Part shown: positions 12,194-21,600 of the stretch, in pieces
How positions within the stretch are numbered: position 1 is the stretch's first letter
Layout of the letters: each line of letters begins with the position of its first letter
Source of the DNA: Candidatus Acidiferrum sp.
Lineage (GTDB): Bacteria; Acidobacteriota; Terriglobia; Acidiferrales; UBA7541
Reading direction: 5' to 3'
Assembly (NCBI GenBank): GCA_035483715.1
Contig: DATHPN010000087.1
Span: 7,819 to 71,818, forward strand
DNA length: 64,000 bases
Program-made: the position numbers and the translations under genes
The notes under the pieces: generated by a model
Told to the model about the DNA's origin: nothing
Databases searched by the model: none
Seen by the model: the letters and a program-made list of their open reading frames with translations, nothing else

Positions 12194-13615
12194 TCAGAGG
12201 ATGTACCGGCTGAGGTCCTGATTCTTCACGATGTCGGCCAGCTGCTTGGTGACGTATGCTCCGTCCACTTTCACATTCTTTTTCTTCAGGTCCGGCGCCT
12301 CGAAGGAAATTTCGTCCAGCACTTTTTCGAGGATGGTGTGCAGGCGTCGCGCGCCGATGTTTTCCGTTTGCTCGTTGACCATGACGGCGTAGCGCGCCAG
12401 GGTGGCAATCGCGTCTTCGGTGAAATTCAGCTTGAGGCCTTCTGTATCCAATAGTGCAATATACTGTTTGATTAAAGCATTCTTGGGCTCGGTGAGAATG
12501 CGCACGAAATCGGCCTCGGTCAGGGCCGTAAGTTCGACGCGGATGGGCAGTCGGCCCTGCAGCTCGGGGATCAGGTCGGAGGGCTTGCTGATGTGAAACG
12601 CTCCCGCGGCGATGAACAGAATGTGGTCGGTGCGGATCATGCCATAGCGCGTGTTGACCGTGGTGCCCTCGACGATCGGCAGGATGTCGCGCTGCACGCC
12701 TTCGCGGGAGACGTCCGGGCCGTGCCCGGACTCGCGCCCGGCGATCTTGTCGATTTCATCGATGAAGATGATCCCCATCTGCTCGGCGCGCTCGACGGCC
12801 AGGCGCGTCACTTGATCCATGTCGATCAGTTTGTTTTCTTCTTCCTGGATCAGGTAATCGAAGGCCTCGGCCACGGTCATTCTCCGGCGCCTCTTCTGCT
12901 GGCCGAAAATTCCCGAGAGCATGTCCTTGACGTTGATGTCCATTTCCTCGACGCCCTGGCTGGAGACAATTTCAAACGCGGGCGTCGATCGCTCGCGCAC
13001 CTCGACTTCCACCAGGCGCTGGTCGAGCTTGCCGTCGCGCAACTGCGCGCGCAGCTTCTCGCGCGTACGGTCCATCTGGTCGCGCCGGGGCGCTTCGATC
13101 TGCGGGGCGGAGGAGTTGGGCGCCTCGGGCGGCATGGGAGGAGAAGCGGGGAGCAGCAGATCGAGGACGCGCTCTTCCGCGGCGTGCTCGGCACGCTCGG
13201 CCACTTCGTCCAGCTTTTCCTCGCGCACCATGTCAATGGAGGTTTCGACCAGATCGCGCACCATGGATTCCACATCGCGGCCGACGTAGCCGACTTCCGT
13301 GTACTTGGAGGCCTCCACCTTGATGAACGGGCAGCCGGCCAGGCGCGCCAGGCGCCGCGCGATTTCCGTCTTCCCAACACCTGTGGGCCCGATCATCAGA
13401 ATATTTTTGGGGAGCACATCTTCCGCCATTTCGGGCGTGAGTTTCTGCCGGCGCACGCGGTTGCGCAGCGCCACGGCCACGGCGCGCTTTGCGGCGGCCT
13501 GTCCGACAATGTATTTGTCCAGCTCGATGACAATTTCGCGCGGAGTCAGCTCGTCAAACGACGGCTCAATCGCCGCTTCTGGTTCGTGCTGCTCGCCGGG
13601 AAGATAGATCACCAT
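12194..13615 (-). CDS. hslU: ATP-dependent protease ATPase subunit HslU
   Basis: 473 aa. [30 protein letters not shown], Walker [26 protein letters not shown], and C-terminal [10 protein letters not shown]. Confidence 0.96.
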
Positions 13616-13644
13616 AATTTACGTTCCACCTTCCGAAAACATGT

Positions 13645-13718
13645 GTCGCCGGCGTCTCGCCGGCGGTTTTCTTATACAAATGCGCGAGTGCAAAATCACC
13701 GGCAAGATGCCGGCGCTA
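13645..13718. repeat. PAL-C palindromic repeat copy 1 (degenerate)
   Basis: GTCGCCGGCGTCTCGCCGGCGG ... CACCGGCAAGATGCCGGCGCTAC, sitting in the hslV-hslU spacer. Its right end overlaps the hslV stop. Confidence 0.75.
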
Positions 13719-14267
13719 CAACTCTTCAATCGTGAAATTCCCATTCGTGAATATACAAATTTCGCTGGCAATCCGCATGGACTCCTGAGCGATCTCTTTT
13801 GCGGGCATCTTGGTATGGGCGGCAAGCGCCCGGGCCGCAGCCAGAGCGAACGGGCCGCCGGAGCCGATGGCGCAGATGCCGTCGTCGGGCTCGATGACGT
13901 CGCCGTTTCCGGACACCAGAAAAGTGGACTTGCCGTCCGCAACGATCAGCAGCGCTTCGAGATGCCGCAGCGCGCGGTCCTTGCGCCATTCCTTGGCCAG
14001 CTCGACCGCGGATTTCGCAAGATTCCCCTGATGTTCCTGCAGCTTCCCCTCGAATCGCTCGAACAGCGAAAGCGCGTCCGCCGTCGAGCCGGCAAAACCT
14101 GCCAGAATTTTTTCGTTGAACAACCGCCGCGTTTTTCGCGCCGTATGCTTCATGACGTGTTCGCCCATGGTGACCTGGCCGTCCGCGGCGATCACCACTT
14201 TGTTGTCGCGGCGCACGCACAGGACCGTGGTGCCGTGCATCCGCGTGGAATTCCGGCTCATTGGCAT
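13716..14267 (-). CDS. hslV: ATP-dependent protease subunit HslV
   Basis: 183 aa. [25 protein letters not shown] ... GFAGSTADA ... GSGG: proteasome-like Ntn hydrolase. An alternative start at ATG 14240 (MHGTTV) would leave a short propeptide before the catalytic Thr. Confidence 0.95.
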
Positions 14268-14558
14268 CAGAGGATTATACCGCGAGCGGCGGTTGCGACC
14301 AACGCGGGGTTCAAAATTGACTTGTGGGCCGTTTCAATTCTCCCGCTGAATTGCAGCGCCGGCTTCCCGAAGAAGTCTGAGGGTTTTTGCAAGGGGTATT
14401 ACTTCCGACTGCTCCGCGATCCCCGCAGAACCTGCGACGGCGCCCGCCGAGGCGCTTGAAATTCATGCAAATTCCCTGAAATTATGTCGAAGGTGCCTTC
14501 TCCCATCCGTCATACATTCAGGAGCACAAAGGTGCTCAAAATTGTTTCCAAAGGAGGA

Positions 14559-14936
14559 ATGGCGATGCAATTTGCCCTGATGATCTACCACTCACCGGAA
14601 GAATTTGCCATCCGGAAGAACGATTATAACGATCCTCATCTCGGCGCCTGGCGGGCTTACTACAAGGCGCTCGTCGAGGCCGGCGTCTACGTCGGCGCCA
14701 ACGCGCTGGAAGTGCCCGAGACAGGAACGACAGTACGTCTCAGGGAAGGAAAACGCACAGTGCAGGATGGTCCATTCGCCGAGACGAAGGAGCAACTGGC
14801 AGGATTCATCATCCTGGAACTCCCTTCCGTTGACGCAGCCCTCGAATGGGCTGCGCGATGCCCGGGAGCATCGATCAGCGCAGTTGAAGTCCGGCCGCTG
14901 GCGCCGGAGGCCATGCGGCGGGGGTTCACAGGATGA
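14559..14936 (+). CDS. YciI/DGPF-domain family protein
   Basis: Internal start (ATG 14559 or 14565) behind AAAGGAGGA. MQFALMIYH...DGPFAETKEQLAGFIILE...EVRP is the YCII-related DGPF signature. Its stop overlaps the sigma factor ATG (ATGA at 14933-14936). Confidence 0.85.
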   Translation: MAMQFALMIYHSPEEFAIRKNDYNDPHLGAWRAYYKALVEAGVYVGANALEVPETGTTVRLREGKRTVQDGPFAETKEQLAGFIILELPSVDAALEWAARCPGASISAVEVRPLAPEAMRRGFTG

Positions 14937-16165
14937 ATGGAAGCATTCAGGAGGACACTCACCGGACCGTAGAGCGCGTGGCCCGAGAATCATACGGCCG
15001 TCTGGTGGCCTACCTTTCCTCGCACACACGCGACGTGGCTAGCGCCGAGGACGCTCTCAGCAATGCGTTGCTAGCGGCTCTCACGGCTTGGCCGCGTAAC
15101 GGCGTGCCACAGAATCCGGAGGCCTGGCTGCTGACGACGGCGCGCCATTCGCTCATCGATCTTATGCGTCATCAGCAAGTAGCGTTAGCCAGCGAGCCCA
15201 CTCTCTTGCTCCTCGGGGAGGATTCCACGGAAATGATTTTGTCGCCGGAGTTTCCAGATGAAAGGTTGAAACTGCTCTTTGTATGCGCCCACCCGGCGAT
15301 TGATCCGGCCATGCACACACCCCTTATGCTTCAGACTGTTCTCGGCCTGGATGCAGTGCGTATTGCCCATGCCTTCCTGGTCTCACCCAAGACGATGGGC
15401 CAGCGCCTGGTGCGATCTAAGACGAAGATCCGTGACGGCGGCATTCAATTCGAAGTCCCGCAAGAGCGTGAACTGGCGCAGCGGCTCGACGCCGTGCTGG
15501 AAGCAATTTATGCCGCCTTTGGGATCGGCTGGGATGACATGGCAGGCGTCGACCAGCGCGGCCGGGATTTGGCCGAGGAGGCGATCTGGCTCGGACGTGT
15601 CCTTCTCGAGCTAATGCCTGGGGAAGCAGAAGTCCGCGGTTTGCTGGCTCTCATGCTCCACTGTGAAGCCCGCAGACCGGCGCGACGGGGGCCGGACGGC
15701 CGGTTCGTTCCTCTGTTGGAGCAGGATTCCCGGCAGTGGTCGCAACCAATGATCGAAGAGGCGGAACAGCATCTTGCCCAGGCGCCGAGTCGAGGCCGCA
15801 CCGGCCGCTTTCAGCTCGAGGCCGCGATTCAATCTGTGCACGCTGAGAGGGCGCGCAGCGGCCGGACCGAGTGGGCTGCGATCGCACTGTTTTACGAACA
15901 ACTGATCCGCATCTCCCCGACGCTCGGGACGCGGACTGGATATGCCGCGGCTGTCGGCGAAGCAAATGGACCTGAAGCAGGGCTGGCGGCACTCGATGGG
16001 ATCGACCCGGACGATGTTTCCGCTTATCAGCCGTACTGGGCAGTTCGCGCTCACCTCCTGCAACGACTAGGCAAAACAGCCGAAGCCGCGGCGGCTTTCG
16101 ACCGGGCCATTGGTCTGGCCGAGGACCCGGCCGTGAGACAGTTCCTGCTCCAAAGGCGTGGCTGA
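14933..16165 (+). CDS. ECF sigma factor with long C-terminal extension (ECF42-like)
   Basis: 410 aa. Region 2 (SYGRLVAYLSSHTRDVASAEDALSNALLAAL...WLLTTARHSLIDLMR), region 4 (LKLLFVCAHPAIDPAMHTPLMLQTVLGLDAVRIAHAFLVSPKTMGQRLVRSKTKI), then ~200 aa of helical/TPR-like tail. Translational coupling to a DGPF protein is the genomic hallmark described for group ECF42. Confidence 0.85.
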   Translation: MNGSIQEDTHRTVERVARESYGRLVAYLSSHTRDVASAEDALSNALLAALTAWPRNGVPQNPEAWLLTTARHSLIDLMRHQQVALASEPTLLLLGEDSTEMILSPEFPDERLKLLFVCAHPAIDPAMHTPLMLQTVLGLDAVRIAHAFLVSPKTMGQRLVRSKTKIRDGGIQFEVPQERELAQRLDAVLEAIYAAFGIGWDDMAGVDQRGRDLAEEAIWLGRVLLELMPGEAEVRGLLALMLHCEARRPARRGPDGRFVPLLEQDSRQWSQPMIEEAEQHLAQAPSRGRTGRFQLEAAIQSVHAERARSGRTEWAAIALFYEQLIRISPTLGTRTGYAAAVGEANGPEAGLAALDGIDPDDVSAYQPYWAVRAHLLQRLGKTAEAAAAFDRAIGLAEDPAVRQFLLQRRG

Positions 16166-16315
16166 CTTTTTCCTGCCTGCTCTGTCGAAATGAGCTCCCT
16201 TCACCCGTCATCATTGTAGAGGCGGCTCCAGCGGAAATCTTTGCCGCCCGTATGCGCCGGCGAACGGAAACGCTGCAGCCTCTGAGGCCCTGCCTGGAGT
16301 CTAGAGGAGGTGAAT

Positions 16316-16462
16316 ATGTGCCCAGTATGCATCGCAAGCACAGCAGCAATGGTCGCTGGAGCCGGATCCACGGGAGGAATTCTGGCGGTCTACATCGGCA
16401 AGTTCAGAAAATTTTTCAGAACGAATCGTCTTGGATTAATTCAGAAAACAAAGGAGAAATAA
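16316..16462 (+). CDS. 48-aa micro-protein, CxxC plus one TM helix (not in ORF track)
   Basis: My own translation: MCPVCIASTAAMVAGAGSTGGILAVYIGKFRKFFRTNRLGLIQKTKEK. GGAGGTG Shine-Dalgarno lies 4 nt before the ATG. The stop TAA (16460-16462) is 1 nt before the DUF899 ATG (16464). Confidence 0.5.
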   Translation: MCPVCIASTAAMVAGAGSTGGILAVYIGKFRKFFRTNRLGLIQKTKEK

Positions 16463-16463
16463 A

Positions 16464-17267
16464 ATGGCAACGAGCACAAAGAGAGACATGGAAGACGGGA
16501 AAGGGCAACTAGCGATGAAAACACCCCCGATCGTCTCACAGGAGGAGTGGGAGGCTGCGCGCCTGCAGCTCCTCGTGAAGGAGAAGGCCTTCACCCGCTC
16601 ACGTGACGCGCTGGCCGCCGAACGCCGGCGGATGCCGTGGATGGCAGTGGAGAAGAGGTACGAATTCGACGGACCCAAGGGCAAAGTAAGCCTGCTCGAT
16701 TTGTTCGAGGGCCGCCCTCAGTTGATCGTCTATCGCGCCTTCTTCGAGCCCGGAGTGTTCGGCTGGCCCGAGCACGCCTGCCGCGGTTGCTCCCTGGGCG
16801 CCGATCAGGTTTCCCACCTGGCCCATCTGAACGCCCGCGACACTACCCTCGCCTACGCCTCACGCGCGCCGCAGGCGGACATCGCGCGCTTGAAGACGCG
16901 GATGGGCTGGGAGATGCCCTGGTACACCATCACCGATAGCTTCGATGTGGACTTTGGCGTCGATCAGTGGCACGGCCACAACGTGTTCTTCCGCGATGGC
17001 GAGCGGATGTTCCGCACCTACTTCATCAACAACCGCGGCGACGAGGCGATGGGGACCACCTGGAGCTACCTCGATATCACGCCGCTCGGCCGTCAGGAGA
17101 CTTGGGAGGTCTCGCCAGAGGGTTACCCGCAGGCTCCGCCGTACAAGTGGTGGAACTGGCATGACAACTACGAGGCCGAGGCTTCGCCCGTCGCGAAGTG
17201 GGTCGAGGTGTCCGACGCTGGAGAAGCTGCCTTCCGAAAGCGCGACAGAGAGGCGGATGCGAGCTAA
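16464..17267 (+). CDS. DUF899 thioredoxin-fold family protein
   Basis: 267 aa. EEWEAARLQLLVKEKAFTRSRDALAAERRRMPW, LIVYRAFFEPG...CRGCS, MGWEMPWYT, FFRDGERMFRTYF..RGDE: characteristic DUF899 blocks. Confidence 0.85.
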   Translation: MATSTKRDMEDGKGQLAMKTPPIVSQEEWEAARLQLLVKEKAFTRSRDALAAERRRMPWMAVEKRYEFDGPKGKVSLLDLFEGRPQLIVYRAFFEPGVFGWPEHACRGCSLGADQVSHLAHLNARDTTLAYASRAPQADIARLKTRMGWEMPWYTITDSFDVDFGVDQWHGHNVFFRDGERMFRTYFINNRGDEAMGTTWSYLDITPLGRQETWEVSPEGYPQAPPYKWWNWHDNYEAEASPVAKWVEVSDAGEAAFRKRDREADAS

Positions 17268-17294
17268 AGAAAAGCGACCACTTCGCCGCCTCGC

Positions 17295-17328
17295 GCAGCG
17301 GCTCGTTTTACACAGCCGCTGCGTTTTT
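17295..17328 (+). terminator. rho-independent terminator-like hairpin downstream of DUF899 gene
   Basis: GCAGCGGCT-CGTTTTACAC-AGCCGCTGC followed by GTTTTTCG: a 9-bp stem plus T-run. The right arm and T-run fall at the start of the hslV-homologous fragment. Confidence 0.55.
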
Positions 17329-17459
17329 CGAGTCGTGTGTTTCATGACGTGTTCGCCCATGGTGACTTGGCCGTCGGCTCCGATCACCACTTTGTTGTCG
17401 CGTCGCACGCACAATACGATGGTGCCGTGCATCCGCGGGGAATTCTTGCTCATTGGCAT
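17313..17459 (-). pseudogene. truncated second copy of the hslV 5' end (first ~49 codons only)
   Basis: Track ORF 16860..17459 starts [49 protein letters not shown]. That is 43/49 identical (manual alignment) to HslV residues 1-49 at 14121..14267. Similarity then ends and the frame runs antisense through the DUF899 gene. Confidence 0.85.
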
Positions 17460-17739
17460 CAGAAGATTAGAGCGGGACCAGCGGCCACGACCAATCCGAG
17501 GTTCAAAATAGACAGGTATATCGTTTCCATTTCAACTGTAGATTGCAGCGGCCTGTTTCTCAGGGAGCTCTTTGGACCCTTAGGGGGTAACTTCCGGGTA
17601 GCTCTTGATCCTCCCAGAATCGACCTGTTCCGCAGTTAATCAGTGTGACTGGCCTGTTAACATAAGCTAGAATTCGACCTGCTACAAAATCCTGATCCAA
17701 ATCTCGTTAAAGCCCACAACACGAGGGGGAGGGCTTCAA

Positions 17740-18456
17740 ATGATTAGGATTATAATCACCCTCATCACGTTCCTGTCATTCGCCGGAGTTCTGGACGCTG
17801 AATGCGTGCTCGTGCCGCCGCTTGAATCCTCCAGCCATATCCGAATATCCGTGGTTCTGGGGGGTAAGCCGCTAAAGGGGGCAAGGGTAATTCTCTACCG
17901 GGTGTCGCAGCACGGGTGTAATTGTGCTACGGACGTGTTGAGGGGCAACCCAATTGACACGACGGTGATTCCTTCGAGTGCTTTACAGGTTACAGACGAG
18001 ATTGGCATTGCCAGTCTGGCGGAACTCGTCCCCGGGGAGTACGAGGTTGCCGCCACCCTCAATAGTATTGCGAGTACTGCCTTCGTTGGACTGCATGTTA
18101 CCAGTAATCCGAAAGTGACGACGATTCCGATGGAACTGACGCAACAGGTTCAACGAGTTGAAGAGGTTCCTATTCTTTTTCACGTCGAGGCATTCCAGGG
18201 AACTGTAAAAGATCCTCCAGGAAATTCGCTTCCAGGAGCGAGCTTCGTCGTCGTGAAAAGGGGATCTCAAGCGAAGGATGTAGCACTAACAAGCAAGGCA
18301 GACGTTAATGGGCATTTTTCGGCTCAATTAACAGAGGGCTCCTACATCGCGGTCTTTTTCTTCCCCGGATTTCGCCCAGCCATTGCCCCATTCGAAGTAA
18401 TAAGAGGAGGCGCCAGCCAGCTTTCAGTCAGCTTGTATGTCGGGGGTTGTCCCTAG
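17740..18456 (+). CDS. secreted protein with two carboxypeptidase-regulatory-like (Ig-like) domains
   Basis: Signal MIRIIITLITFLSFAGVLDA. Repeats of the pattern G-x-P-L-x-GA-x-V-x-L...D-x-x-G-x-x-x-x-x-L-x-x-G-x-Y (KGARVILYRV...DEIGIASLAELVPGEYEV; GASFVVVKRG...DVNGHFSAQLTEGSYIAV). The region is visibly more AT-rich than its flanks. Confidence 0.55.
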   Translation: MIRIIITLITFLSFAGVLDAECVLVPPLESSSHIRISVVLGGKPLKGARVILYRVSQHGCNCATDVLRGNPIDTTVIPSSALQVTDEIGIASLAELVPGEYEVAATLNSIASTAFVGLHVTSNPKVTTIPMELTQQVQRVEEVPILFHVEAFQGTVKDPPGNSLPGASFVVVKRGSQAKDVALTSKADVNGHFSAQLTEGSYIAVFFFPGFRPAIAPFEVIRGGASQLSVSLYVGGCP

Positions 18457-18683
18457 AATACCTAACTGCATTGCCTGCAGCAGGCATTTCTCTCAAGGTG
18501 AGCATGAGTTTGGCGTTAAATAGCCATTTCACTTCCGACGCCCAGAGTTTACGGTCCCTGGTGGATTGTCGGCCAACCGGAAGTTGAAGTCCTGACCGCG
18601 GAGCGGCATTGATCGAGGATGTCTCTTCGCGCGCCACGTCGAATATTGTGTTCCAATCTTTCGCTGGAAATAGTGCACGGACT

Positions 18684-21600
18684 TCAGGCCTTTACCGGCG
18701 CCACGGGAGGAGGCACAGGAACTTCAGGCTCCACGCCGCGCCAGCCGACCGACCTGCCCTGCACGGCGCCCATCACCGAGCGGAACAGCACGAAGTACAT
18801 CATCTGCCGGTAGTAGAAACGTTGCAGCAGCAACGGCCAGAGCAGGGACCAGTCTTCATGGCGTTCGAGAGTGAATGCGACAATGCAAGTAAGGAAATCA
18901 ATCAGCATGAATCCGATAAAAAATACTAGCGAGCGCTGCACATCCGCGGTCGTGTAGAACTGTGGCAGGTGAGTGAAATGGATCAGCGAAGCGCCATACA
19001 ACAACAGCGAGCCCAGAAAAAGGAGATCGATCACCGGGGAGAATAGCGGCAACAGTAGCTGGAAAAGAAACATGTTGGGCAGCGCGATCCATCCGAGCGT
19101 CCCGTATTTCCTGCGTCCGAGGGTGTTGCGATGTTTCCAGAAGGCCTGCAGAGTCCCGAACGTCCAGCGGAACCGCTGCCGGATCAGCGTGGACGCCGTT
19201 TCGGGAGCATTCGTCCAGCCAATCGCTTCTTCCTCGTAGTCGATCTTCCAGCCCGAGCGCCGGATGGTGATGGTCAGGTCGGTATCTTCCGCGACAGTGT
19301 CCGCGCTGAAGCCGCCGGAATCGTTAATTGCTTCCGCGCGCCAGGCGCTCAGCGCTCCAGGGACGACCGGAATGCAATTCAGCAAATCAAAGGCGCGCTT
19401 TTCGAGATTCTGGCTGGTGACGTATTCGAGCGCCTGCCAGCGCGTCAGCCAACTGATCCGGTTGCCCACCTTCACGTTTCCGGCGACGGCGCCAACCCTG
19501 GGGTTGACGAAATGCCGGACGAGTTTGCTGATGGCGTCGGGTTCGATGGCGGTGTCGGCGTCGATGGTCACGATGATGCTGCTCGAAGCTTCGGCCAGGG
19601 CATGGGAGAGCGCAGCAGGCTTCCCGGAATTGGGCTGGTGCATGATGCGAACGGCGGGATTTCGCCCGAATTGCGCATCGAGTAATTCGCCCGTGCCGTC
19701 GTTCGACCCGTCGTCCACGACGATCACTTCCAGCCGTGAATAGTCGGACTCCAGCACGGAATTGATGGTGTAGACGATGACGTCTTCTTCGTTGTAAGCG
19801 GGGATCAGCACGCTCACCACCGGCTGAAAATCCGGCTGATCGGGAGGCGAAGGCCGGAACTTCTCGATGATGGCGAGGAATCCCACGATAATCGCGCGGC
19901 AGCTCACAAGGCCAATCCCCAGAACGAAAATAAATGCCACGCTCAGCCGCGACCACTCATACAGCGTGAAGATCAGTCCATCGGCATGAGCCACGAGGCG
20001 CTCGCGGAAAGTGAGCGGCGGCATCAGCTGCGCGCGCGTTTGCCCTACCAGCTCCGAGACCGGGACGATCTGAAATCCCGCGGCGCGCAAGCCGTCAATA
20101 ATTTCCGGTAAGGCTTGCACGGTATTCGCGCGATCACCGCCGCCGTCATGCAGCAGCACAATGTTGCCGCCGTTCGAACGCGCCTGCTCGAGAACGCGTT
20201 GAACGATCACTTGGGCCGGAGCCGGCGGAACACCTCCAGGCTCGCCCCAATCGTGCGGATCGATTCGCGCGCCCACGATCAAGTAGCCCATGGATTGCGC
20301 GATGGGCAGCTCAGCGACTTCATCCGCCGTTTCAGGCTGGTGGTCGATGCCGTACGGCGGGCGGAATAAGAGCGTCTTCACGCCCAGCGTGCTGTTCAGC
20401 AGCCGCTCGGTCACATTCAGCTCGACGTCAATTTGCGTGCGCGAGATTTCATTCCAGCGTGGATGCGTATAGGTGTGGTTGCCGATCTCGTGGCCCTCGT
20501 CATATTCGCGCCGGATAATTCCCAGGGCGTCGTTGGCGCCGCTTCCGATCACAAAGAATGTGGCTGGCGCATGTTTGGCTTTCAAGACATCCAAAATTTT
20601 TGGCGTGAAGGTCGTGTCCGGCCCATCGTCGAAACTGAGCGCGACTTTGTAGGGCGCGGCGCCCATCTGGAAGATGCGATAAGAAGTGGGAAGCGACTGG
20701 TAATTGTCCTCGACAATGTTGTCGGTCGCAGGATCAAAGCGAATCGAACGTTTCCCTTTTTGCGGCGTGTCCGCGAACCTCCAGATGTCGCCGTCGCCCT
20801 CGAGAACCAGGTCATATCCCGGTGGCATGTCTTGGAGTTTGGCGCGGTCGGCGTCATTGGGGCGCGAGTTATCCCAGATCGACCACACCGAAGGATCTTC
20901 CGAGCCCAGCCGCCAGATCGCCGTGCCTTGCACGCCGACGCGTTCGGCGGCGCGCAGTTCGTTGTAGGCGGTCACGCCGTCGAGCATCCAGACGCGGTGG
21001 ATGAAGTTGTGCTCGTCCGAATACGAATAGAAAGGGTTGAGAGAATCCGAGTCAAACTGGACCTGGGCTTCCGATTCCGTCGCCGTGACGATGGACTCCT
21101 GGAAGCTCTCCACCTTGGCCTGTTCGTGCGCCTTCAATCCCGCCTTGCTGGGCCAATCGTAGGCGTAGTTGGCGATTCCCATCACCAGCTTCGCCGGCGG
21201 CACCAGCTTGGTGATGGCCTCGATGTTCCTCACAAACCAATCTTGCGCGGCGATGGGGCCGGGGCCGGATGTGCGCCAGTGCTGGTCGTAATTCATGAGG
21301 ATCACGGCGTCGGCGGATTTTCCAATCCCGGCGTAGTCGTAAATCCAGTCGGCCGCGGGGAGTGCAACCATGAGTTTCAGATTCGAGCTGTGCAGATCCG
21401 CGGCCAGCTCGGAGATAAATTGGCTGAAATCCTTCTGGCTCTTGTCGGGAATTTCTTCAAAATCGACAACGAGTCCGGCGAAGTGGTTTAGTGTGAGATA
21501 TTGGACCGATTGTTGAGCCAGATTTCCACGGGCCGCGGGGCTCTTGAGCATGGTGGCCATTTCGTCGGTGAGCCAGTTGGTGCCGTCGGAATTGTTCAGC

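Follow-up and report, generated by a model that had tools for sequence, protein, structure and literature searches.

In a 64,000-nt stretch of DNA from Candidatus Acidiferrum sp. (contig DATHPN010000087.1, positions 7,819 to 71,818; hereafter the window), the promoter region and the first 49 codons of hslV, a housekeeping protease gene, are present twice in direct orientation, and four genes, which make up a stress-regulator cassette, lie between the two copies. As described below, this repeat is probably the scar of an integrase-independent, homology-anchored recombination that was completed by one illegitimate joint, between two alleles of an insertion hotspot located upstream of hslV. The copy that continues into the full-length hslV is called copy 1, and the truncated copy is called copy 2 or pseudo-hslV. 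Coordinates are positions in the window, and L-numbers denote the contigs and genomes used for comparison.

Structure and reality of the repeat

When 13900-14700 was compared with 17100-17900 by blastn, one strong alignment was obtained, in which 14120-14430 and 17312-17620 were identical at 239 of 313 positions (76%, E=2e-62). Repeat finding gave an ungapped core of 239 nt at 14120-14358 and 17312-17550 (81% identity, spacing 3192), and nhmmer with a profile of orthologous hslV upstream and 5' regions placed copy 1 at 14450-14121 and copy 2 at 17621-17313. In the coding part, the copies differ at 18 of 147 nt (87.8% identity; dN=0.065 and dS=0.41 by the NG86 method) and the peptides agree at 43 of 49 residues, exactly as given in a preliminary description of the window, which had noted a second occurrence, at 17313-17459, of hslV codons 1-49 (14121-14267, minus strand). 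Past codon 49 the copies are unrelated (11 of 60 positions identical), and the similarity ends abruptly. The preliminary description had also reported non-coding similarity upstream of both ATGs. This similarity is present, but it is nothing peculiar to the duplication, because both copies contain an upstream block of about 185 nt that is conserved before hslV throughout a clade of species.

The same gene order was found at 98-100% identity in six independent soil-metagenome contigs, and the arrangement is therefore not an artefact of assembly. Judged by its homologues, the organism belongs to Acidobacteriota, Terriglobia, 'Acidoferrales'. In addition, one metagenome contig of 7.6 kb covers both copies, and one contig runs from copy 1 to the gene of a GH18/polysaccharide deacetylase/GT2 fusion protein (hereafter GT), which lies beyond copy 2. 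A chimeric contig joining two strains at the conserved hslV 5' sequence might be suspected, since the source is evidently metagenome-derived and several contigs break in or near the repeat. However, its probability is negligible: the order of cassette, pseudo-hslV, CarboxypepD_reg gene and GT is reproduced in independent assemblies from different samples, the pseudogene carries decay mutations of its own, and a strain-specific deletion exists.

The junction between cassette and pseudogene

The last gene of the cassette encodes a DUF899 protein, and its 3' flank is conserved in more than 20 unrelated contigs, where it reads AGAAGGGCGACCACTTCGCCGCCTTCGAGCAGCCGGCTCTTTTCACACAGGAGCTGCGCGAG... and also ...CGACCACTTCGCCGCCTTCGAGCAGCCGGCTCTTTTCACACAGGAGCTGCGCGAG... 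In the window, this conserved flank stops at ...TTTTACACAG (17312), ending ACACAG, and after 17312 the window reads CCGCTGCGTTTTTCG, which corresponds to hslV codons 49-44 on the reverse strand. Bases 17313-17323 match both the DUF899 flank and hslV codons 46-49, and blastn alignments to DUF899-flank homologues extend to 17319-17323. The parental sequences share ACAG and then GCnGCG at this point (flank ...ACACAGGAGCTGCGCG; hslV reverse strand ...AACAGCCGCCGCGTTTTT; window ...ACACAGCCGCTGCGTTTTT). Judged by these matches, the junction between the cassette and the pseudogene is an illegitimate joint at microhomology.

The fusion also brought a hairpin to the junction. On the plus strand it consists of 12-14 bp followed by U5 (-28.3 kcal/mol, z -3.5), and on the minus strand it is predicted at -33.2 kcal/mol (z -3.2); 0 of 200 shuffles were as stable on either strand, and neither parental sequence folds better than its own shuffles. 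The hairpin was found by folding; a simple terminator scan had missed it because of its 10-nt loop. According to the fold, transcription from either side may be terminated by it. Searches of the region against Rfam and for tRNAs gave no match.

Copy 1 is intact and copy 2 is decaying

The product of 13716-14267 scores above the cut-offs of the NCBIfam HslV equivalogs (287 and 278 bits), contains the HGTT motif, and is 97% identical to HslV of the nearest species representative. Its promoter, TTGGTC-17-TATAAT, has the -10 box at 14274-14279 and the -35 box at 14297-14302, and TTGGTC-N17-TATAAT is present about 12-45 nt before the ATG in all relatives. Copy 1 has zero nucleotide states that are absent from the orthologues, and it agrees with the consensus of 120 HslV homologues at T14 (in the HGTT motif), A43 and R47.

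Copy 2, by comparison, has the replacements T14I, A43T and R47Q, all at residues that are invariant among the 120 homologues. Its -10 box is TCTAAT, against TATAAT in copy 1 and the orthologues, while the -35 box TTGGTC is retained. Since it has only 49 codons and HGTI instead of HGTT, it is not a member of the HslV family. In L004, which is 98-99% identical to the window, 64 nt (17288-17351) are deleted between two TTCGCC repeats (L004 1066-1071), which takes out pseudo-hslV codons 37-49 together with the junction hairpin; the hairpin is therefore dispensable. On these features, copy 1 is the working gene and copy 2 is a decaying pseudogene. The preliminary description was thus right in calling the second copy a pseudogene truncated after codon 49. 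It had further proposed that one promoter region drives hslVU and that the other points into the cassette in antisense; the first part stands, as the copy-1 promoter is intact, but the copy-2 promoter has a damaged -10 box and faces strong hairpins at the junction. Annotators should note that the 199-aa open reading frame (ORF) at 16860-17459 is a read-through of the hslV fragment, antisense to the DUF899 gene, and belongs to the pseudogene.

The interval between GT and hslV is a hotspot

We compared the locus in 80 species-representative genomes that carry a close HslV. On the downstream side of hslV (hslU, fn3 protein etc.), synteny is kept throughout the relatives, while the upstream side varies. 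There are empty sites, in which the GT gene ends 75-150 nt before hslV (L091, L096, L097, L098, L100, L107, L112, L115 and L117), and there are loci in which the interval holds 0.7-9.9 kb of unrelated genes (L089, L090, L094, L095, L099, L101-L104, L108, L109 and L136); L005 and L006 have a different arrangement again. The cargo includes a TPR protein, kinases, a Kelch protein, a metallophosphoesterase, a peptidase M3, katG and an APS kinase. At the near edge of the interval, the block of about 185 nt stands before hslV in the cargo-bearing genomes whatever adjoins it beyond, and at the far edge a profile of the GT 3' flank matches the same flank in L089, L094, L095, L099, L101, L102 and L104. 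The empty sites, with GT directly adjoining hslV, are those that the preliminary description had proposed to look for, and they support its view that the cassette was inserted and is not part of an ancient fixed duplication.

Three relatives are especially close to the situation in the window. In L090, the YciI, sigma factor and DUF899 genes adjoin hslV without any pseudo-hslV, and the locus is collinear with window positions 16227-13717 at about 80-82% identity, the junction between cassette and upstream block included. In L109, a second promoter with about 44 hslV codons, 94% identical to the genome's own hslV and bearing a frameshift and T13I, lies 6 kb upstream of hslV and is followed by katG, an ORF and the APS kinase gene. 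In L095, a second upstream block breaks off at -22, where a duplicate of the GT flank's end is joined to it; this block and the functional copy bracket the metallophosphoesterase gene. On this comparison, the L109 and L095 duplications of the hslV upstream region are independent events, with other cargo and other end points. The duplicated L109 promoter (L109 3727-4130) keeps TTGGTC-N17-TATAAT, and katG starts about 110 nt past the end of the pseudogene; from this position, the spare promoter may drive the captured catalase-peroxidase gene. The L109 katG junction itself was uninformative, since L104 and L109 have only the katG gene in common.

True mobile elements also land in this hotspot, as L104 carries an IS91-family transposase (Y2_Tnp, Zn_Tnp_IS91) and a 298-aa tyrosine recombinase (L104 7641-9719) about 280 nt upstream of hslV and beside katG. 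It may be asked whether the cassette is a mobile island, integrated site-specifically at an attachment site that mimics the hslV 5' end and promoter, with the integrase acting in trans or since lost. Direct repeats and an intact target gene do resemble the islands found at gene ends, a second species, L109, has a duplication at this gene end too, and the L104 recombinase and transposase lie right before hslV. We nevertheless consider an island highly unlikely. No recombinase is present in the cassette or within about 8 kb, where the neighbours are housekeeping genes (Pfam, gene tables), and the hslV duplication was not found in L104 itself. There is no common crossover core: the repeat of the window stops at codon 49/50, those of L109 and L095 stop at codon ~44 and at -22, respectively, and such differing end points argue against a site-specific recombinase. 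The inner end is the ordinary 3' flank of a DUF899 gene cut at the microhomology ACAG, and the units of the cassette occur in dozens of contexts without any hslV-like sequence. The window also differs from the known islands in that the 5' end of the gene is duplicated, not the 3' end. The preliminary description had itself seen no integrase, transposase or terminal inverted repeat, and we likewise found none of these, nor a tRNA, in or near the cassette. The reading of the cassette as a discrete element that integrates itself at a defined attachment site was not upheld, in view of the illegitimate inner joint, the variable ends and the two conserved units that make up the cassette.

A different recombinase-based explanation is a dedicated cargo-capture site, in which the GT 3' flank with AACTTCCGGnTGGCCGAC and the upstream block with TCGGAAGTAAT would serve as recognition sequences for a host recombinase, much as in integrons or Xer/dif modules. 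Both boundary sequences are conserved around very different cargo, the two motifs are mutually inverted, the GT flank element is found again between the cargo genes of L095 and L109, and the CarboxypepD_reg module of the window is sharp-ended, with short similar sequences at its ends in unrelated contexts. Against this, the repeated units in L089 are the 5' and 3' ends of paralogous kinase genes, so the boundary sequences can be remnants of an ancestral cargo gene. Moreover, the motifs are short and degenerate, similar 8-mers are frequent in these loci, the junctions lie at differing positions, and no recombinase is linked to the locus. For ACTTCCGG and CCGGAAGT as recombination sites, the kinase-gene origin of the L089 repeats and the commonness of such 8-mers leave a rival of low probability only. 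A capture site of this type is, like the island, highly unlikely, and a trans-acting recombinase recognising the conserved boundary sequences is possible but unlikely.

Some further observations were made on the GT side of the hotspot. A 75-nt internal piece of GT is repeated at 92% identity 1.4 kb downstream in L090 (3946-4020 and 5374-5448), on the far side of an inserted 354-aa ORF, which is another small flank duplication at the hotspot. The hslV-upstream-block profile gave weak matches (E 0.1-10) about 600 nt into the GT gene (21363-21479 in the window), at the same place in 18 related loci; none is significant singly, and the loci are homologous and hence not independent. The GT 3' flank was also considered as an older, decayed hslV promoter and start, since MAFFT aligned the two, but nhmmer did not relate them in either direction and shuffled sequences aligned locally just as well (p = 0.08-0.97), and we rejected it as a third hslV remnant.

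The two copies have separate histories

The coding part of copy 1 is 95.2% identical to that of L094, 94.6% to L095 and 93.9% to L096, and only 87.8% to copy 2, whose own closest orthologue is that of L089 (89.8%). Among the 18 differences between the copies, the copy-2 state is present in orthologues in 12 cases and unique in 6; of these 6, 4 replace a conserved residue. Had copy 2 arisen from copy 1 by duplication and then decayed neutrally, one would expect 3.4 such coincidences and not 12 (P<5e-5; P=0.026 in a model restricted to third positions). The dN/dS ratio between the copies is 0.16, so the copies diverged for the most part while both were still functional, apparently as working genes in different lineages. 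The roughly 4-5% of unique change in copy 2 means that its inactivation is comparatively recent. Copy 2 thus looks like a different, once-functional allele and not like a recent copy of copy 1, and one copy very probably came from another lineage, which fits the suggestion in the preliminary description that the incoming DNA brought its own version of the gene end. The upstream block of copy 1 is most like that of L090 (77.6%), whereas its coding part comes closest to L094 (95.2%), a difference that is suggestive without reaching significance.

These results bear directly on an in-genome explanation, a tandem duplication of the segment from codon 49 to the DUF899 flank in a lineage that already had the cassette beside hslV, after which the second cassette would have been lost or replaced by the CarboxypepD_reg module and copy 2 would have diverged through decay alone. 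A tandem duplication of 14121-17312 would create exactly the observed joint between the DUF899 flank and hslV codon 49. The 94% identity of the L109 copies is also compatible with an in-genome origin, and a few upstream positions are common to the two window copies only, e.g. GCTGCAAT. However, orthologues in other species are closer to copy 1 than copy 2 is, 12 of the 18 copy-2 differences are seen in other species, and a dN/dS of 0.16 is far under the roughly 0.5 expected with one copy neutral since the split. The explanation further needs a second event, the precise loss of an entire duplicated cassette, and the two-cassette intermediate is seen in no relative. We therefore regard tandem duplication as unlikely.

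Cargo of the hotspot in the window

The four genes that the preliminary description had placed between the copies were recovered by Pfam as a YCII protein, a sigma-70 factor, a short ORF without family and a DUF899 protein (Table 1). In the 410-aa sigma factor, Sigma70_r2 covers residues 19-82, DUF6596 residues 184-284 and TPR_8 residues 368-398; its matches to NCBIfam models of extracytoplasmic function (ECF) sigma-70 factors are below the cut-offs. The micro-ORF, with an alternative start at 16310 (48-50 aa), has no family match in Pfam or NCBIfam. By tblastn, about 40 of 80 metagenome loci have it immediately before DUF899 (40-92% identity), and it probably encodes a genuine small membrane protein that is paired with DUF899.

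Comparison with other contigs divides the cassette in two. The stretch 14453-16227 (YciI-sigma) is 77-79% identical to six metagenome contigs that have a common left end, and at least 12 contigs match 16303-~17323 (micro-ORF-DUF899), starting at the same base. Both units occur in dozens of other contexts, and none of the contigs sharing either unit has hslV nearby. As judged from these shared ends, the cassette is made of two conserved operon-like units.

Table 1. Features of the hslV region in the window.
Feature	Position	Strand	Basis and remarks
hslU, AAA+ ATPase, partner downstream of hslV	12194-13615	-	Pfam AAA_2/AAA; synteny with hslV in all relatives
Functional hslV, 183 aa	13716-14267	-	Pfam Proteasome
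Repeat copy 1	14121-14430	-	hslV codons 1-49 (14121-14267), promoter, conserved upstream block to about -165
ECF-type promoter motif TGTCGAA-N15-CCGTCAT	14485-14513	+	Before YciI-sigma; conserved in six metagenome contigs
YCII/DGPF-like protein	14559-14936	+	Pfam PF03795, E=1.9e-19
ECF sigma factor with C-terminal DUF6596/TPR extension, ECF42-like	14933-16165	+	Pfam Sigma70_r2, DUF6596, TPR_8
Second ECF-type promoter motif	16183-16211	+	Before micro-ORF and DUF899
Micro-ORF, 48 aa (MCPVCIASTAAMVAGAGSTGG...)	16316-16462	+	Conserved, paired with DUF899
DUF899 protein, thioredoxin-like family of unknown function	16464-17267	+	Pfam PF05988, E=3.5e-82
Illegitimate junction and fusion hairpin	17290-17327	.	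Flank comparison, blastn, RNA fold
pseudo-hslV, copy 2 coding part	17313-17459	-	Codons 1-49 only
Copy 2 promoter and upstream block	17460-17621	-	-10 TCTAAT 17466-17471, -35 TTGGTC 17489-17494
CarboxypepD_reg-domain secreted protein module	17592-18555	+	Gene 17740-18456; Pfam, G+C profile
Conserved 3' flank of GT gene, far edge of variable interval	18550-18686	-	Profile matches
GH18/polysaccharide deacetylase/GT2 fusion (GT), 1134 aa	18684-22088	-	Pfam; synteny

The motif TGTCGAA-N15-CCGTCAT, which we take to be the published ECF42 motif, has two matches in the window, both in the cassette, where 0.01 would be expected by chance. As it is confined to these two sites, it is plausibly the target promoter of the cassette's own sigma factor, and its second position points to control of DUF899 and the micro-ORF by the adjacent sigma factor. 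ECF42 sigma factors have a TPR-rich C-terminal extension of about 200 residues (PMC8999054), and modules in which they are combined with YCII/DGPF proteins are described in the same source, with reference to Liu et al. 2018. The cassette resembles these modules in its TPR-rich extension of ~200 residues and in the adjoining YCII-family gene, a fit judged by architecture; the likeness concerns the cargo only and not the duplication.

On the other side of copy 2, the CarboxypepD_reg module has a G+C content of about 0.51, compared with about 0.60. The gene, with ~150 nt of its upstream and ~100 nt of its downstream sequence, matches metagenome contigs with unrelated flanks at 90-94% identity (beside BcrAD_BadFG/DUF2229 genes in L169-L171, and elsewhere in L172-L174), and the module ends with short similar sequences, GATCCnCCCAGAATCG on the left and ACTTCCGACnCCCAGA on the right. 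The module appears to have been transferred recently and on its own, and it has no mobility gene.

In the spacer between hslV and hslU (window 13616-13715), many relatives have a palindromic element of 70-90 nt, among others at L089 10578-10660, L090 10577-10663 and L115 10590-10674. Further copies in L115 (1831-1915, 3190-3277 and 4915-5003) indicate that this may be a dispersed repeat similar to repetitive extragenic palindromic (REP) sequences or miniature inverted-repeat transposable elements (MITEs). The window itself has a G+C-rich hairpin at 13645-13667 in this spacer.

A model for the formation of the scar

We propose that two alleles of the hotspot were combined. One allele would have had the CarboxypepD_reg module before hslV, and the other the YciI, ECF42-sigma, micro-ORF and DUF899 genes before hslV, an arrangement still present in L090. 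One exchange would have occurred via ordinary homology in a flanking conserved gene, either hslVU or GT, and the other join would have been illegitimate, at about 4-11 nt of microhomology between the DUF899 3' flank and hslV codons 46-50. The same product could also be reached by a single crossover of a circular intermediate closed by the same illegitimate joint. By either route, both cargos would be retained, and the promoter and 49 hslV codons of one allele would be stranded between them. The stranded fragment has since decayed, while the other copy would keep hslVU intact and expressed. What can be read directly from the comparisons is the geometry, the existence of empty sites, the joint at microhomology, the decay of copy 2 and the separate ancestry of the copies; the recombination pathway is what we infer from them.

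Several points weigh against this model. First, no same-species donor or pre-insertion genome was found, and all same-species contigs already carry the arrangement; likewise, homologues of the CarboxypepD_reg protein occur only in the same arrangement (same species) or in unrelated contexts, again without a pre-insertion genome. Second, the test of separate ancestry rests on 147 coding bases, and its conservative version is the one with P=0.026. Third, sliding-window identity to 9-12 relatives gave no clear breakpoint in hslVU or the GT gene, and the relatives are about equally distant (87-92% at the nucleotide level), without a consistently nearest one; the homologous crossover is therefore unmapped, and neither copy can be named as the resident one. 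Fourth, within the microhomology the T of GCTGCG matches the cassette flank while the adjoining CC matches hslV, so that a clean single crossover needs an extra substitution or mismatch repair. Fifth, the close similarity of the two L109 copies also fits an in-genome origin in that genome. Finally, the model would require that this uncultured lineage takes up DNA from other cells, by transformation or conjugation. On the evidence, the rival explanations are nevertheless weaker than homology-anchored recombination with one illegitimate joint.

Relation to known systems and significance

The model is closest in mechanism to homology-facilitated illegitimate recombination (de Vries & Wackernagel 2002; Prudhomme et al. 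2002; Meier & Wackernagel 2003; as cited in PMC5361080; see also the E. coli study PMC3240628). The shared features are foreign DNA beside a homologous stretch, a second junction at a short G+C-rich microhomology of a few bases, and no dedicated recombinase. The classic products delete recipient DNA by the anchor, whereas a 310-nt segment has been duplicated in the window, because the illegitimate joint fell inside a region that the incoming DNA also carried. The pathway assigned here is a putative one, read from the sequence. Campbell-type single crossover likewise flanks the insert with direct copies of the homologous segment, as seen in the window, and in a study of E. coli most of the recovered events were single crossovers of circular molecules, leaving duplications of 109-950 bp (PMC3240628). 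In the window, such integration would require a circular intermediate with hslV codons 1-49, the upstream block and the cassette, and the repeat copies would then be reciprocal chimeras.

The nearest described analogue is found in the displacement arrays of Rhs, contact-dependent inhibition (CDI) and type VI effector-immunity genes (PMC5361080). These also form a hotspot beside a constant gene, new arrivals push older material aside, and orphan fragments mark the borders of modules; the arrays are built by successive displacement, which is attributed to homology-facilitated illegitimate recombination (PMC5361080), the mechanism proposed here. As described in that source, which cites Jackson et al. 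2009, such arrays displace the variable 3' ends of toxin genes, and the immunity genes are under selection. In the window, by contrast, the 5' end and promoter of a housekeeping protease gene were displaced, the cargo is unrelated, and the fragment decays.

A broader idea is that the region before hslV is a recurrent gene-capture site that grows by the stacking of alleles, each time leaving a spare promoter and 5' end that captured genes could reuse. We offer this only as a speculation, and rather doubt it. If true, such a site would be the 5'-end, promoter-donating counterpart of the 3'-end displacement arrays at Rhs and type VI loci.

In conclusion, the scar is of an ordinary kind but unusually well documented, and no new molecular system is revealed by it. 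It exemplifies, at base level, how a chromosome can gain genes without the machinery of mobile elements, and it does so in an uncultured soil phylum whose mechanisms of gene transfer are hardly known. As shown here, a partial gene duplicate flanking an insert need not imply an integrase. In addition, the GT-hslV interval is newly recognised as a hotspot, which will be useful for the comparative genomics of this clade.

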